Shown piece after piece: positions 1,438-44,463 of a stretch of DNA of 64,000 nt (positions within the stretch are counted from its first letter, which is position 1; every line of letters starts with the position of its first letter). Made by a program: the position numbers and the translations under genes. The notes below the pieces were generated by a model, which worked only from the letters and a program-made list of their open reading frames with translations, did not search any database and was not told the origin of the DNA. Where the stretch lies: the IMG/VR virus record IMGVR_UViG_3300046786_000774, positions 6,903 through 70,902 of that record, one strand, 5' to 3'. Source of the stretch: a virus (taxonomy: Duplodnaviria; Caudoviricetes).

Positions 1438-1465
1438 TTGACTCCAGCGAGTTACTGGTTAATCT
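1438..1465 (+). promoter_or_regulatory. sigma70-like promoter TTGACT-N16-TAATCT
   Basis: intergenic, upstream of AGGAG SD of the 1484 gene. Confidence 0.45.
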
Positions 1466-6263: not shown

Positions 6264-7502
6264 ATGACGGAACAGAAGTACGAGTGGATCGAGACGGGTG
6301 GTAAGGTCGGAGCGAAGGCTTGGGTCAAGGGTGTCAAGTTCGAGGACGAGGCACGCCAGCAAGTCAGCAAGATGGCCTCCCTGCCGTTCATCCACAAGCA
6401 CATCGCAATCATGCCCGATGTTCATGCAGGAAAGGGCTCTACTGTGGGGTCTGTGATCCCAACGAAGGGTGCTGTGATCCCAGCTTGCGTCGGCGTGGAC
6501 ATTGGCTGTGGGATGATTGCTCTCCGTACGAGCCTCAAGGCTTCGGACCTTCCTGTGAGCCTCGCTGAGATGCGTTCGCTCATTGAAGAGAACGTTCCCC
6601 ATGGACGTACCGACAATGGCGGGGCGAACGACCGTGGAGCCTGGGGACAGGCTCCTGAAGAGGTGGAAGCTGCTTGGTTGAAGATGCAGCCTGGGTTGAA
6701 GCAGATCGTTGACAAGCACCCAAAGGTGTTCCGTCAGAACGATCTCCGTGGCCTGAAGCAGCTTTGCTCGCTGGGGACAGGAAACCACTTCATCGAGGTC
6801 TGCCTCGATGAGAACCAGAACGTGTGGGTCATGCTGCACTCTGGTTCCCGTGGAGTTGGGAACTCCATTGGTTCCTACTTCATTTCCCAGGCAAAGGAGG
6901 AGATGAAGAAGTTCCACATCAACCTCCTTGACCAGGACTTGGCTTACCTTTCGGAGGGAACCACTCTCTTCGATGACTACTGCCACGCTGTGGAGTGGGC
7001 ACAGGAGTATGCTCGAACGAACCGCATGCTCATGATGGGTCGAGTTCTCAAGGCAATCCGTGAAACCAAGGGAATCCCTCCTTTCAACACCGAAATGGAA
7101 GCCGTCAATTGCCACCACAACTACGTCTCCAGGGAGACTCACTTCGGTGAGAGTGTCCTGGTGACCCGCAAGGGTGCCGTCCGGGCTTCCAAGGGAACGC
7201 TTGGTATCATCCCAGGTTCGATGGGAGCTCGCTCCTACATCGTTCGTGGGCTTGGGAATCCAGAGTCCTTCGACTCTTGCTCCCATGGAGCTGGCCGAGT
7301 CATGTCACGTACGGAAGCCAAGAAGACCTTCTCCCTGGAAGACCACAAGCTGGCAACCAGCGGTATCGAATGTCGGAAGGATGAGGATGTGATCGACGAA
7401 ACTCCTGCCTGCTACAAGGACATTGACGCTGTCATGGCAGCTCAGGCGGACCTTGTCGAGGTTGTGCACACACTCAAGCAGGTGTTGTGCGTCAAGGGTT
7501 GA
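6264..7502 (+). CDS. rtcB: RtcB-family RNA 3'-phosphate/5'-OH ligase
   Basis: MPDVHAGKG, VGVDIGCG, SLGTGNHFIE, LHSGSRG, CHHNY, HGAGR, KQVLCVKG motifs. Confidence 0.97.
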   Translation: MTEQKYEWIETGGKVGAKAWVKGVKFEDEARQQVSKMASLPFIHKHIAIMPDVHAGKGSTVGSVIPTKGAVIPACVGVDIGCGMIALRTSLKASDLPVSLAEMRSLIEENVPHGRTDNGGANDRGAWGQAPEEVEAAWLKMQPGLKQIVDKHPKVFRQNDLRGLKQLCSLGTGNHFIEVCLDENQNVWVMLHSGSRGVGNSIGSYFISQAKEEMKKFHINLLDQDLAYLSEGTTLFDDYCHAVEWAQEYARTNRMLMMGRVLKAIRETKGIPPFNTEMEAVNCHHNYVSRETHFGESVLVTRKGAVRASKGTLGIIPGSMGARSYIVRGLGNPESFDSCSHGAGRVMSRTEAKKTFSLEDHKLATSGIECRKDEDVIDETPACYKDIDAVMAAQADLVEVVHTLKQVLCVKG

Positions 7503-13452: not shown

Positions 13453-13482
13453 ATACCCCCATTAACCACGCCAAAACCAAAG

Positions 13483-13770
13483 TCAACCCTCTTCTTTGAT
13501 GTAGTCCTCGTAGATGTGGATGGCGTTTACGGGCCACCAAAAGTTGATCAGATACATCGTTTCATCCCACAAGCCAACAACGCAGAGGACTTTTTCCCCT
13601 GGCTTTGCGAGAATCAGCAAGAATGGGCCGGAAATCACATCTGACATATCCATTTGGGACGAGAACACTCCGTTTTTGTGCTCACAGCGAAAGGCAAGCA
13701 TCTCCCTGTCAAGGTAACATAGAGTTCCCGGCTGGAAGCGCTTTAGTTTCTCGTCCAGGTGATCTTTCAT
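13483..13770 (-). CDS. hypothetical protein (small paralog family)
   Basis: FQPGTLCYL...LCVVGLWDETMYL; ATGA-coupled. Confidence 0.6.
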   Translation of the reverse strand: MKDHLDEKLKRFQPGTLCYLDREMLAFRCEHKNGVFSSQMDMSDVISGPFLLILAKPGEKVLCVVGLWDETMYLINFWWPVNAIHIYEDYIKEEG

Positions 13771-32926: not shown

Positions 32927-33991
32927 TCACTTCCTCTTCCTCGTCTTGTAGTCTTCGCCCACAAATTTGAAGATGGTCCTCTGAGTCTTGGGATTCCACC
33001 TCTCTTGGAGAGGCTTGATCACATAACCCTCTCGGGTGTGACCCGGATAGAGCACAGAAGGTCCGTTCCTCAGAGACTCAAGAGAAGGCTCCCAGGGGCC
33101 TCTGTAGAGCTCGGGAACAACGTCCAGGCCCATTGCCAAGGCAATGGCTTCCGTGACATTCCAGTCGTTGTAGCGGCCCAGGGAAGGGTTCCAGGAGTCA
33201 AACACCCGGAAGGTAGCTCCCTTGTCAACTCCATAGCGAAGATCCTGGACTTGACCGTAGACTTCACCGTAGATCACGGTTCCTTCAAGGTTGATGTCGT
33301 TGAATTTGAAAGCCCCGGAAAGGAGTCGCTTGAACCTCTCCTCCATTCCAAGATTCTTGGCGACCTGCCACCAGAGATTCCTCTCTACGCCATCCTGGTC
33401 GACATACTCGGCCTTGACACAAGTACGAGAGCCAACCCAAAGGCGACCATCACGGTAACAAAAACGTCCATTAGCACCATGGATCTTCTCCAGGATGACA
33501 ACCTCGTCACCCTCGTTGATGAGCCCAGCATTTCGGTACTTGGCCCAACCATCAATGTCGGTGTAAATCGGCATGAAGCCGGGATCACGCTCATTCTCAC
33601 CTGTCGTTGCGAGCGTGTCACCTTGGTCCTCGTACTTGGTCAATCCAAGTCGTTCGGCAACATGCGTGCCAACGGGGATCGAGGCAAGCTCCTCCTTGGT
33701 GAAGAGGATCTTTGCAGGGACAAGCAATCCATTTGAGAAGATTCCACGAAGACGAACAGCGTCGATCCTTCGCCCCGGCTTCAATCCTGGGTTGTCCTTG
33801 AGAATTGGGTGCTCCGGGTCCGTTGGGAGAACAGTGTCAGGCGGCAAGAACACCGCCAAGTCACCATTCTCGTACGTTCCCGTACGGAAGATGACGTTCT
33901 GCCCATAGACCTGGGTGATGGAAAGGGTATCGGCGTTTGGGTGTTTGCCAAATCCGCCAATTTGAACCAAGTGAACAAGCCAGTCGCTCAT
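32927..33991 (-). CDS. ATP-dependent RNA ligase (Rnl2/DRB0094 type)
   Basis: KHPNADTL N-domain, EKIHGAN motif I, YGEVYG, FRVFD, EGYVIK, FKFV. Confidence 0.9.
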   Translation of the reverse strand: MSDWLVHLVQIGGFGKHPNADTLSITQVYGQNVIFRTGTYENGDLAVFLPPDTVLPTDPEHPILKDNPGLKPGRRIDAVRLRGIFSNGLLVPAKILFTKEELASIPVGTHVAERLGLTKYEDQGDTLATTGENERDPGFMPIYTDIDGWAKYRNAGLINEGDEVVILEKIHGANGRFCYRDGRLWVGSRTCVKAEYVDQDGVERNLWWQVAKNLGMEERFKRLLSGAFKFNDINLEGTVIYGEVYGQVQDLRYGVDKGATFRVFDSWNPSLGRYNDWNVTEAIALAMGLDVVPELYRGPWEPSLESLRNGPSVLYPGHTREGYVIKPLQERWNPKTQRTIFKFVGEDYKTRKRK

Positions 33992-35757: not shown

Positions 35758-36072
35758 TCAGAACTCAGAGTCCTGGCACTTGCAAGAGTTGCAACAGTGG
35801 ACGGTCTTCTCTTTGCGTCGGTACTTGATCAACTTTTCCCGGTAACGTCTGTTGCACTCCACGGTGCCGTCTTTCTTGCATACATCACAGCGCAAGTCTT
35901 CCTCAAGACCGCAGTGCTTGCACTTCCGCCAGTAGAACTCGGGATCATAGATCCCAAAGAAGTCCTCCGAGCAGTAGATGTTGGGCTCCACATCCTCCCA
36001 GGAGTGAAACCCACAAGCGCAGAGAGCTCGTCGGAAGATGGAAGGCTTCGGTTGATTGGTTTGTTCGGCCAT
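35758..36072 (-). CDS. Cys-rich hypothetical protein
   Basis: LCACGFHSW, CKHCG, CDVC; start ATG 36072. Confidence 0.6.
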   Translation of the reverse strand: MAEQTNQPKPSIFRRALCACGFHSWEDVEPNIYCSEDFFGIYDPEFYWRKCKHCGLEEDLRCDVCKKDGTVECNRRYREKLIKYRRKEKTVHCCNSCKCQDSEF

Positions 36073-36086
36073 GGTACTCTTTCTTG

Positions 36087-36134
36087 TGGTCGCCTTTCCA
36101 AGAATCGAACTCGGATATCGTGCCAACAAAGGCG
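36087..36134 (-). ncRNA. armless tRNA-like element (acceptor stem + T-arm + A-CCA, 48 nt)
   Basis: CGCCTTT / AAAGGCG 7-bp stem, 13-nt linker, CCGAG-TTCGATT-CTTGG T-arm, discriminator A, CCA. Confidence 0.65.
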
Positions 36135-36476
36135 AATGGGGTTGTTGCTGATTGAATCCGTCCATGCTCGGCCCCTTGCGAGAATTAGACTTTCCTGGAC
36201 CTTTAGGCGTGACCGAGTTGGTCGATCCAAGTGGGATCATTTACTTCAACACCACTTGGTCCCATAAAGGGTGGTGTCAGAGCTTCTGTTTTCAGGAGAA
36301 CCAGCGCCCGAAGCAACGCTGGACATTCCATTTAGACAGGCAAGGCTTCTACTCCATTAGGCTTTGCGGGTGGGTTTCTACAAAGTTCCGGGCGATGAGT
36401 TTAGGCACTTTGGCCTTCTAGACAGGCATTGGGACGGCGTTTCCTTCTTAGCTCTCAGTTGGTCGTTGCTGCCACA
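36087..36476 (-). ncRNA. candidate ~390-nt structured ncRNA
   Basis: longest stretch without a convincing ORF; own promoter; several hairpins incl. cUUCGg; ends in tRNA-like element. Confidence 0.45.
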
Positions 36477-36481
36477 CCCAC

Positions 36482-36509
36482 CATTTAACCAGCCCCCTCT
36501 TGTCGTCAA
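36482..36509 (-). promoter_or_regulatory. sigma70-like promoter TTGACG-N16-TAAATG
   Basis: same TTGAC...TGGTTAA layout as promoters at 1438 and upstream of the HD hydrolase. Confidence 0.45.
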
Positions 36510-36519
36510 CACCCTTCGT

Positions 36520-36867
36520 TCATTTTGGCGAAAGGAACACGTCGTAGGAGTGTTGGTTCCCTCTGGTTGCCGTGACGAAGTACAGATCGCCAAGCAACGC
36601 CTGGATCAGGTCGACCGTAGGGAGCTTGGTCTCCTTGATGATCCCGACCGAGAGGAACTCCACCAGGGAGCTCCGCTTGTTGAGCCCGATCACGAAGGTG
36701 CCTCGCCAGTATTCCGGGTTGAACTTCAGGGAGTGGTAATCCAGCTCGCAAGCTGTAACCCTGGAGAACCAAAAGGTATCTGCCGTGTGATCAGCGTACG
36801 AGACGTACGGCTGCGTCAACACCAAAAACGGCATTCGGGCCTTGATTGCTTCAAGAGAGTCTACCAT
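36520..36867 (-). CDS. hypothetical protein
   Basis: 115 aa. Confidence 0.65.
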   Translation of the reverse strand: MVDSLEAIKARMPFLVLTQPYVSYADHTADTFWFSRVTACELDYHSLKFNPEYWRGTFVIGLNKRSSLVEFLSVGIIKETKLPTVDLIQALLGDLYFVTATRGNQHSYDVFLSPK

Positions 36868-37876
36868 TCACCATTTCCTTCACCGTGAACAACTCCCCAA
36901 GGAGTCGCTTGATAGCCTCTCCATGCGAGGCATGGGTTGTCCACTCCTTTGTGGCTGGATTGTACTTCCTCTGCTTGACCGGAATCTTCTTGATCTCACC
37001 GATGAGAGCGTACATCGCTTGATTTTGGTTTTTCAGCCAAGGAAGCACGAACACCGTCCAGTCTCCATTCGTCCTGGCGATGATCACAGGCTTCTTATCA
37101 GCCCCCTCAGCGGCTTCCAGTTCCTCGAACGAGGGAACCGCCATTGGGTTGCTCTCGACCCACTGTGCAGCCTCCTGGGCAAGCTGCTGAATGGTTCCGC
37201 CTTCAACGGGCTGACCGTTGGCATCCGAGACGACATAGAAGGGCCAGAAGTTCTGAACAGCTTCGAGGAATAGAGCAGCCTGGGCTGCTGGAACAGAGAA
37301 CGGTTCGCCATTACCCCTTCGAGCTGGGACCTTGATGCCGGGAATAGCCTTCATTGCAAGGAAGCCAGCCTTACAGGAAGCTCCCTTGAGGTAGAGGAAC
37401 CCGTCCTTGAACCAGAGAGGAGCCGACGAGGTGGAAGCCTCCAAGGAGAGGACGGCAGCGAGGGCACTGTACCCAAGCCACTTGACAGCGGAGACAAGGA
37501 ACGCTCGCTCCTTCTCTTCCATCCTGAAAGAGAGAATCCAGTCCAGCCCCTTGATGATCTTCCGAAGATCCTCTCCAGTGAGCTCGAATTCCCTTCCACC
37601 TTCCGAAGCCATGGCAGCCTTGTTGCTATGCTTGAGCAAGGCATCACGGATCTCATTGAACTTCGGGAGACAGGCTTCCGGGAGGTTCTCGGGGTTCATC
37701 CCCCAAATGATCGAGATGGCAAACGGGTAGTTCGCCTCGATGGTCTTTGCGTAAAGGTGGGTATCCTTCCTTGCACAAATGGGACCATAGCCCCTTTCTT
37801 CGCTCGCTGGGTCTTCCAGGGGCAAACCACAGCGAGAACAGCGACGACGTTCATTCCGTTGGAAGGCAAGACTCAT
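36851..37876 (-). CDS. DUF6011-like zinc-binding protein with C-terminal HARP-like segment
   Basis: CSRCGLPLEDPASEERGYGPIC; C-terminal IKKIP..RKYNPATKEW; GAGGTG SD at ATG 37876. Confidence 0.65.
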   Translation of the reverse strand: MSLAFQRNERRRCSRCGLPLEDPASEERGYGPICARKDTHLYAKTIEANYPFAISIIWGMNPENLPEACLPKFNEIRDALLKHSNKAAMASEGGREFELTGEDLRKIIKGLDWILSFRMEEKERAFLVSAVKWLGYSALAAVLSLEASTSSAPLWFKDGFLYLKGASCKAGFLAMKAIPGIKVPARRGNGEPFSVPAAQAALFLEAVQNFWPFYVVSDANGQPVEGGTIQQLAQEAAQWVESNPMAVPSFEELEAAEGADKKPVIIARTNGDWTVFVLPWLKNQNQAMYALIGEIKKIPVKQRKYNPATKEWTTHASHGEAIKRLLGELFTVKEMVNGRLS

Positions 37877-38068
37877 CTGAACACCTCTATTCAAGAATAA
37901 TGTCTGTTTCGCCGGGGTCAAGGGAAATATTATTTCTCCGATGCATTCTTGCCACTTTTCCCAAGTGATTACAAGGCGTTGGGCGAATAGAAGGCTCCAG
38001 TTTTGTAAACTTAATCTGGAATCTATTCAGGTCAACTCTCAGACAATTGAGAAACTTGAAAAGCAAAT

Positions 38069-44133: not shown

Positions 44134-44163
44134 GGTGGAACTGTAACCACCATCACCGGGAAG

Positions 44164-44463
44164 TCAACGGTAGTGCTGAACCAATCCGTTGGTATAGAAG
44201 ATGTGCCACGGCAAAAGGTGGCTGGCAGCGACGTAGTTTTTGATCTTTTCAGAAACAAATGTCGCTTCCCGGAGCTCGTATTCCTTCCCAGCCACCCAAG
44301 TCTCCTGCATCACAGATGGGTTGTTCGGCATCGCAACGCGGTGAACGTTCTGCCAGAACTTCGAAACCGTAAGGCACTTGACCCTCACCACAGGTTCAAC
44401 CTGGATGACCTCAAAGGCAAGGCCATCACCTTCCAACTTCTGCCCAATCGTGAACTCGCTCAT
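44164..44463 (-). CDS. hypothetical protein
   Basis: 99 aa; probable paralog of the 43882 gene. Confidence 0.6.
   Translation of the reverse strand: MSEFTIGQKLEGDGLAFEVIQVEPVVRVKCLTVSKFWQNVHRVAMPNNPSVMQETWVAGKEYELREATFVSEKIKNYVAASHLLPWHIFYTNGLVQHYR

Follow-up and report, generated by a model that had tools for sequence, protein, structure and literature searches.

Acceptor/T-arm minihelices of the pAT1 type, a man-made design, serve as synthetic RNase P substrates. In nature, tRNA-like folds occur in tmRNA, in the Y RNA YrlA, at the 3′ ends of plant virus RNAs, after the long non-coding RNAs MALAT1 and MEN-beta and, as mitochondrial 'tRNA punctuation', between genes. Bacterial RNase P has natural substrates other than tRNA precursors, among them phage M3 RNA, the precursor of the P1/P7 C4 antisense RNA, operon mRNAs, tmRNA and 4.5S RNA (PMC11143913), and a 3′ RCCA promotes cleavage by the enzyme (PMC11143913). 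We compared with these systems a 48-nt element found in the window, by which we mean the whole 64-kb stretch of phage DNA analysed here. The element contains the top half of a tRNA, that is, an acceptor stem, a T arm and an encoded CCA, without an anticodon arm; the place of the D arm, the anticodon arm and the variable loop is taken by 13 nt. On the minus strand, 36134..36087 reads CGCCTTT-GTTGGCACGATAT-CCGAG-TTCGATT-CTTGG-AAAGGCG-A-CCA, exactly as the initial annotation of this DNA had described it, and that annotation was also right that the base at -1, read as T at 36135, could pair with A73. The canonical letters of the T arm are all present (G53:C61, T54, T55, C56, G57 and A58, R57 being a G), and the acceptor stem begins with C1:G72, G2:C71 and C3:G70 next to the discriminator A73. 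Since the acceptor and T stems adjoin on the 3′ strand, they could form one stacked helix of 12 bp, like that in the top half of a tRNA. The transcribed strand of a non-coding gap carries this minihelix; a single base separates it from helix P1 of the structured RNA upstream, and 14 nt from the start codon of a Cys-rich protein gene downstream (Table 1). Within the clade that carries it, the 14-nt leader between the CCA and the start codon has a single variable position (36077, G/A). A switch that sequesters the Shine-Dalgarno sequence was considered and rejected: the 5′ acceptor strand is predicted to pair weakly with the purine-rich leader, a trivial outcome of the composition of the acceptor 3′ strand.

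Table 1. Features of the minihelix locus and related genes, in window positions
Feature	Position	Strand	Basis or remark
tRNA-like minihelix, 48 nt	36087..36134	minus	sequence
Acceptor stem, 7 bp, all Watson-Crick	36134-36128 with 36097-36091	minus	sequence
13-nt linker GTTGGCACGATAT	36127-36115	minus	sequence
T stem CCGAG/CTTGG, 5 bp, one G:U, closing pair G53:C61	36114-36110 with 36102-36098	minus	
T loop TTCGATT, 7 nt	36109-36103	minus	sequence
Discriminator A	36090	minus	sequence
Encoded CCA	36089-36087	minus	sequence
U at -1, single base between helix P1 of the upstream RNA and the acceptor stem	36135	minus	sequence and consensus structure
14-nt leader CAAGAAAGAGTACC from CCA to start codon, purine-rich, Shine-Dalgarno-like	36073..36086	minus	sequence
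Conserved structured non-coding RNA or leader, ~346 nt	36136..36481	minus	alignment and covariation
Insertion of ~86 nt in the structured RNA, boundaries approximate	36343..36428	minus	alignments
Promoter-like block: TTGACG, 12 variable nt, TGGTTAAAT	36483..36509	minus	conserved in all relatives, L146 included
DUF6011 protein gene	36851-37921	minus	
115-aa protein gene, no assigned function	36520..36867	minus	last codons overlap the conserved block
104-aa Cys-rich protein gene, no assigned function	35758..36072	minus	
RNA ligase gene, Rnl type with PHA02142 OB domain	32927..33991	minus	2 kb downstream of the minihelix; syntenic in L133
RtcB gene	6264-7499	plus	29 kb from the minihelix

The source record in IMG/VR is 70.9 kb long and CheckV puts its completeness at 20%, which for a record of this size indicates a jumbo phage; the protein cluster of the downstream gene has one member on a contig of 297,674 bases. 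DNA of the phage comes from freshwater, wastewater and activated-sludge metagenomes, where 20 runs from 14 studies hold all or part of the stretch. On the minus strand, the DUF6011 gene is followed by the 115-aa gene, a gap of ~450 nt, the 104-aa gene, several small ORFs and the RNA ligase gene. The 104-aa gene starts with ATG at 36072-36070 (GTG in L135/L136), and its product belongs to no Pfam or PHROG family and has only weak Atlas matches. Public gene callers place a 160-aa ORF across the minihelix (P0001, 22 members); we rejected this ORF as an artefact, the true start being the ATG at 36072. P0001 and other read-through 'proteins' of 135-190 aa correspond to window positions 35758-36240 and run from the 3′ part of the structured RNA through the minihelix into the 104-aa gene. 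The gap did not prove coding or recoded either, each of the six frames being interrupted by stops or an antisense artefact. The phage also has three tRNA genes, which lie outside the window (G000:C1:3792-6439; Cys-GCA, Thr-GGT and Thr-CGT); none of them encodes CCA and none resembles the minihelix. Together with RtcB and the Rnl-type ligase, these tRNA genes make up an RNA-repair and tRNA toolkit. Such genes show a phage engaged with tRNA damage; they carry no link to the minihelix.

The RNA upstream of the minihelix is ~346 nt long here and ~270 nt in relatives (about 270-350 nt overall). Its ends are closed by helix P1, in which GUGGG(U)GU (36481-36474) pairs with ACCCCAU (36142-36136) and which in L143 shows a double change from G:C to A:U; since its 3′ strand ends at 36136, P1 reaches position -2 of the minihelix. 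Among the hairpins inside the RNA are CCAGCG..CGCTGG and CACCAC..GTGGTG. Eight sequences representing four lineages gave a consensus structure of 58 pairs, with 98.3% of cells paired and compensatory changes in 5 pairs, a level of support reached in 0 of 500 shuffles and with 0-1 in slid controls; the structure was predicted from the same alignment in which the compensatory changes were counted. The RNA is ~88% identical in nucleotides to that of L133, as against 55% amino-acid identity for the flanking protein. We found the RNA in the clade of the window phage, in L133, in L140-144 and in the IMG/VR relative; a covariance model of its core (R2) matched this clade only. No Rfam family was assigned to the window, L133 or L143 versions, either at gathering thresholds or at E<=10. 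The gap was thus rejected as a tmRNA (two-piece forms included), an RNase P RNA, a group I intron or a member of another Rfam family, ARAGORN and Rfam both being empty. The string AGGAAAGTC is reminiscent of the CR-I region of RNase P RNA; it stands in the wrong place and was discarded as a hint of that class.

A promoter-like block precedes the structured RNA and is followed by GGTGGGTGTGGCAGCAAC in all relatives. The block (36483..36509) would work as a promoter. With TGGTTAAAT as a -10 box, the expected transcription start falls within the 5′ strand of P1, a conflict that calls for revision of the promoter reading or of P1 in its outer pairs. In L146 (L146:3340-3800) the block is kept (TGTTGACG...CTGGTTAAATGGTGGGTGTGGCAGCAA) while unrelated sequence, in which an ORF of 107 aa is called, takes the place of the RNA body, so that the block behaves as a portable module. 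The pattern TTGAC-N13-TGGTTA also occurs, with 2 mismatches, at window positions 1438-1464 (+), 13460-13486 (-) and 44141-44167 (-). With at most 3 mismatches it was observed 8 times against 4.25 expected, and 5 of 100 shuffles did as well; it may be a recurring promoter type of the phage. The insertion of ~86 nt inside the structured RNA is present only in the clade that bears the minihelix and has two flanking copies of TGCCTGTCTA(G/A)A. One of these copies is like the L133 version and the other like that of L140, which suggests a duplication or a recombination.

We then compared the minihelix with known RNA classes. No tRNA or tmRNA gene was called in the window by ARAGORN, permuted tmRNA forms included, and Rfam gave no match at the minihelix at gathering thresholds, nor at E<=10 on the surrounding 701 nt. 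The same tRNA model (RF00005) detected 3 real tRNAs elsewhere in the record. These empty results agree with the earlier prediction that no full tRNA or tmRNA would be called. The T arm, the 7-bp acceptor and the discriminator are those of the tRNA class as defined by RF00005 and ARAGORN; the cloverleaf with D and anticodon arms is not there. A tmRNA was ruled out by the C3:G70 pair, by the local acceptor stem and by the lack of an ARAGORN (permuted included) or Rfam match, and the locus has no tag ORF, so that the initial annotation was also correct in denying the element a G3:U70 pair and a tag frame. A bacterial Y RNA of a Ro RNP was rejected as well, with no match to PF05731 in G000-G002 (13-44% of the genomes) and none to Rfam, and no gene for a CCA-adding enzyme was found in the fragments examined, which cover 13-44% of these genomes. 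Searches for an origin were likewise empty. With the T arm and the acceptor 3′ strand as query, allowing 3 degenerate positions, there were 0 matches in one genome for each of 185,579 GTDB species, and a looser pattern in the one-per-species genomes gave no tRNA among the first 120 matches listed. IMG/VR contained no complete tRNA that shares the acceptor stem and T loop of the minihelix, short-word BLAST found no donor sequence, and a covariance model of the minihelix (R1) found no further copy in the window, 17 loci and five whole viral records. The best secondary match of the minihelix covariance model was the 3′ half of the phage tRNA-Thr(GGT), at E = 3.3; a decayed copy of one of the phage's own tRNAs was rejected on this value and on the lack of CCA in those genes. 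An 11-nt string, AAAGGCGACCA, inside the RNA of L143 was judged a chance match (E about 2). Because a tRNA sharing the acceptor and T arm was found neither among cellular nor among viral sequences and the phage tRNA genes lack CCA, an origin as an att site or a tRNA relic is without support; the outcome that the earlier annotation had named as fatal, a decayed tRNA 3′ half or an att site, did not turn up among the phage tRNAs, in IMG/VR or in GTDB. Judged by its sequence, the minihelix is outside the tRNA, tmRNA, Y RNA and att-site classes. It fits by sequence the functional class of minihelix-type RNase P substrates, having 7+5 bp, a TTCGATT loop, ACCA and U-1.

The distribution of the minihelix was determined among relatives of the window phage, further contigs of which were reached through homologues of the flanking proteins in a large protein collection. 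The 48 nt are identical in four distinct variants with 95-96% identity (L003, L135/136, L137/138 and L139). The surrounding 1.1 kb contains 86 change events among these variants, or 0.078 per nt, and the minihelix 0 in 48 positions as against about 3.7 expected (P = 0.02 for the prespecified 48 nt). The minihelix lies inside the longest invariant run of the 1.1-kb region (36078-36141); an invariant run of that length anywhere in the region is ordinary (P = 0.36). Its pseudo-translation is invariant in all 14 of the 14 cluster members that cover it, and a word search of 5.8 billion proteins with this pseudo-translation matched its own cluster alone. Scans of IMG/VR and JGI metagenomes, by DNA pattern and flanking proteins, gave one near-identical contig only, and the phages collection gave no match. 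All the more distant syntenic relatives (L133, L140-144 and L146) lack it. In L133 the flanking proteins are 53-55% identical to those of the window phage; the 115-aa protein is 71% identical in L140-142, 70% in L143/144 and 69% in L146. In these minihelix-free relatives, 24-45 nt of other, unrelated leader sequence connect the RNA to the start codon. An intermediate lineage is represented by contig L147, whose 115-aa protein is 86% identical and which breaks off 19 nt past that gene. Absence from the more distant syntenic phages indicates that the minihelix is a recent, lineage-specific addition. As the clade in which it is invariant is shallow (at least 95% identity), covariation is impossible. 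Thus, where the initial annotation had looked to conservation or covariation in relatives, we found invariance within the shallow clade; covariation could not be seen there, and beyond the clade the element is absent. More distant phages that share only the DUF6011 synteny (L004-L010) had neither the structured RNA nor the minihelix. One of the relatives, L140, is filed in public data under a 'Spirochaetes bacterium' MAG (GCA_008012165.1, contig SSEG01000007.1, 198.7 kb). This contig is syntenic with the window phage, with a methyltransferase, DUF6011, the 115-aa homologue and the structured RNA, and is probably a jumbo-phage contig that was binned into a bacterial MAG.

How often would such an element arise by chance? 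In 300 dinucleotide shuffles, a T arm with a 7-bp acceptor closure within 100 nt occurred 0.30 times per window, and the same motif with CCA 0.0067 times per window (2 of 300 dinucleotide-preserving shuffles). The minihelix is the only such motif in the 64-kb window. The motif with CCA is therefore rare in one window, yet it is not rare across a scan of many windows, and the motif by itself is no proof. Its fold energy, -13.2 kcal/mol, is thermodynamically ordinary (z = -1.2 against shuffles). The stems have a predicted probability of 0.8-0.95 in isolation; in longer precursor contexts that of the acceptor stem falls to 0.04-0.44, and with the minihelix placed at a new 5′ end, after a modelled RNase P cut at +1, the prediction is 0.8-0.85. 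With an ordinary energy and a motif that is not rare across a scan of many windows, the case for the minihelix rests on its position and its conservation. Parts of the locus were present at low depth in four RNA-library runs (X15-X18, wastewater/sludge metatranscriptomes), as assembled contigs that carry no information on RNA ends and in which a lack of cover over a part has no meaning; depths at the locus were 3-8, similar to those of neighbouring genes. One metatranscriptome contig (X16, record 12) spans 36078-36231 and ends 9 nt past the CCA. Its span places the 3′ part of the structured RNA and the minihelix on one molecule in an RNA library, where DNA carry-over is possible.

These observations can be read in several ways. 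The one that we favour, tentatively and with a chance that we put somewhat short of even, is that the minihelix punctuates the transcript in the manner of a tRNA, marking it for RNase P and 3′ trimming; its exact placement at the border between the structured RNA and the gene makes a punctuation mark the most economical reading. All parts would belong to a single precursor transcript, in which the promoter-like block comes first, the structured RNA second, the minihelix third and the Cys-rich protein mRNA last. The acceptor and T stems of the minihelix would stack coaxially over 12 bp, with a canonical T loop at one end and ACCA on the 3′ side. Bacterial RNase P recognises this as a minimal substrate shape and would cut between U36135 and C36134. 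A U, as at 36135, is the favoured -1 base of bacterial RNase P. The structured RNA on the upstream side would thereby be released, its ends paired and its 3′ end carrying a tail of 2 nt. Downstream, what remains would be an mRNA with a 5′ monophosphate hidden inside a stable helix; alternatively, a second cut with trimming back to the CCA would separate this mRNA from a free mini-RNA of 48 nt. Going beyond the observed anatomy, junction position and distribution, we infer that the locus is transcribed as a single precursor, that the minihelix folds in vivo, that RNase P cleaves it and that stability or expression may be affected. That the CCA is encoded here while the three tRNA genes of the phage lack it suggests that it is kept for a reason other than tRNA ancestry. 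An earlier suggestion that the element is an RNase P processing tag for the upstream RNA fares well as to the setting, with a covariation-supported RNA whose P1 ends one base away and a U at -1, and less well in that the RNA exists tag-free in relatives. Since this holds for every more distant relative, the tag would be a dispensable, recent add-on and not integral to the RNA. Several points count against cleavage or against punctuation altogether. The leader is paired by P1 up to -2, and U-1 may pair with A73; either feature could hinder or shift the cut. The low predicted probabilities of the acceptor in precursor contexts (0.04-0.44) and the unremarkable z = -1.2 speak against a signal, as do the shallowness of the clade (at least 95% identity) and a conservation test that reached only P = 0.02.

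A neutral origin is a possibility that we consider real, if on the whole unlikely: the 63-nt segment between RNA and gene would be a recent, functionless insert, derived from a tRNA gene by internal deletion or resembling one by chance, and would look conserved only because the clade is young. Confinement of the minihelix to a clade at least 95% identical and its absence from all other syntenic relatives are as expected for such an insert. So are the leader between the structured RNA and the start codon, which differs and is unconstrained in every lineage, the fold stability, which is not unusual, and the impossibility of covariation; the chance frequency of the motif (0.007 per window) also matters across many windows. 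The second insertion in the same clade, inside the structured RNA, suggests that the locus was recently rearranged. A relic is harder to reconcile with 0 changes in 48 nt where about 3.7 were expected (P = 0.02), with canonical T-arm positions that are all intact and a perfect 7-bp Watson-Crick acceptor, with a CCA that the phage's own tRNA genes lack, and with the exact junction of the minihelix with P1. Nor was a parental tRNA found in the phage's own set, in IMG/VR or in GTDB at one genome per species, where an unsampled donor is possible. Alternatively, the 48-nt RNA, released by RNase P and 3′ trimming, might accumulate and act in trans as a decoy, sponge or substrate, which we regard as improbable. 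Candidate targets would be toxins that modify the CCA end or cleave the acceptor, CCA-adding enzyme, EF-Tu or an aminoacyl-tRNA synthetase. The element is indeed a complete top-half tRNA with an encoded CCA in a phage that invests in tRNA and RNA repair (RtcB, the Rnl ligase and three tRNA genes). We take A73 with G2:C71 and C3:G70 to recall the initiator tRNA acceptor, and C1:G72 with A73 presumably recalls bacterial tRNA-Pro; both serve as leads only. On the other side, the element is single-copy and RNA contig depths of 3-8, like those of its neighbours, give no sign of high expression; close relatives with the same repair genes lack it; and a full-text literature search gave no described phage minihelix decoy. 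Having no anticodon arm, it would be no decoy for anticodon nucleases, the best-known tRNA-directed defences, and only enzymes of the acceptor or CCA end could be its targets. To the specific version in which host tRNA-maturation enzymes release a free CCA-ending 48-nt top-half tRNA that works in trans as a toxin sponge or a chargeable minihelix we give little credence. It is also quite improbable that RNase P makes no cut and that P1, U-1:A73 and the acceptor stack as one long helix, the mature RNA then consisting of the structured RNA plus the minihelix with a CCA-OH end that is protected or repaired like a tRNA 3′ end, in the manner of a 'genomic tag'. A single base, able to pair with A73, separates P1 from the acceptor, the CCA is encoded, and the RNA-library contig 36078-36231 stops 9 nt after the CCA, a very weak indication as such contigs lack RNA ends. 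However, relatives make the structured RNA without any such cap, and neither a terminator nor a known cleavage site follows the CCA. Finally, the usual core of a tRNA-type att site consists of the T arm, the acceptor 3′ strand and CCA, all of which the minihelix has, and in principle it could be an attP with a copy of the 3′-terminal part of a host gene for tRNA or tmRNA. We find this hardly credible and rejected it: exact or near-exact matches (3 degenerate positions) were absent from the genomes of all 185,579 species, none of the first 120 looser-pattern matches listed was a tRNA, the adjoining 5′ acceptor strand would be superfluous in an att core, no integrase was among the 25/39 Pfam families listed (55 ORFs), and the genome looks large and of lytic type, with its own replication genes.

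If RNase P cuts the minihelix, the locus would provide a natural bacterial-virus counterpart of MALAT1/mascRNA and of the synthetic minihelix substrates, with a minimal armless tRNA mimic as the punctuation between a structured non-coding RNA and an mRNA. Should the reading as a free 48-mer be true instead, the conflict between phage and host would include a naturally occurring armless mimic of tRNA. The locus also draws attention to a conserved, covariation-supported RNA with no Rfam family in a jumbo-phage lineage that is widespread in freshwater and wastewater. The lineages with and without the minihelix are a ready-made natural experiment on what the tag contributes, and this contrast, together with the adjacent conserved RNA, makes the minihelix experimentally tractable. 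The public annotation of a 160-aa 'protein' across the minihelix should be corrected.

Among known systems, the plant RNA virus 3′ tRNA-like structures, or 'genomic tags', are likewise top-half tRNA mimics with a CCA end on a larger viral RNA. They stand at the extreme 3′ end of RNA genomes, have a pseudoknotted acceptor and are aminoacylated, whereas the minihelix is internal to a DNA-phage transcript and a gene follows it. The Y RNA YrlA, encoded next to rsr and rtcB, is also a tRNA-mimicking module in a genome with RtcB. YrlA, however, differs from the minihelix in having its tRNA-like part inside the molecule and a Ro-binding stem made by the ends; here, no Ro60/TROVE gene was found in the fragments examined, RtcB is 29 kb away and Rfam gave no Y RNA match. 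The tRNA-like domain of tmRNA shares with the minihelix the acceptor and T arm, the lack of an anticodon arm, the discriminator A and the CCA. Its acceptor, however, joins the 5′ and 3′ ends of an RNA of 300-400 nt, while that of the minihelix is a local hairpin, and tmRNA has G3:U70 for alanylation, a tag frame and pseudoknots in contrast to C3:G70 and no tag ORF. MALAT1-mascRNA, MEN-beta and the mitochondrial 'tRNA punctuation' similarly place a tRNA-like fold after a long structured non-coding RNA or between genes, and there RNase P creates the ends of the neighbouring RNAs. Those systems are eukaryotic or organellar and the minihelix is encoded by a bacterial phage; mascRNA folds into a complete cloverleaf, anticodon-like arm included, and has its CCA added post-transcriptionally, whereas the minihelix is armless and has its CCA in the DNA. 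The phage RNase P substrates, phi80 M3 RNA and the P1/P7 C4 precursor, are likewise phage-encoded and embedded in a longer precursor. To our knowledge, M3 and C4 are hairpin-type RNAs with a regulatory function of their own and no canonical T loop; compared with them, the T arm of the minihelix is complete and canonical, its linker measures 13 nt, and its cleavage is a prediction. The pAT1-type synthetic RNase P substrates offer the same 12-bp coaxial acceptor and T stem, T loop, 3′ RCCA and single-stranded -1. The minihelix is best described as a putative, narrowly distributed variant among tRNA-like processing signals.
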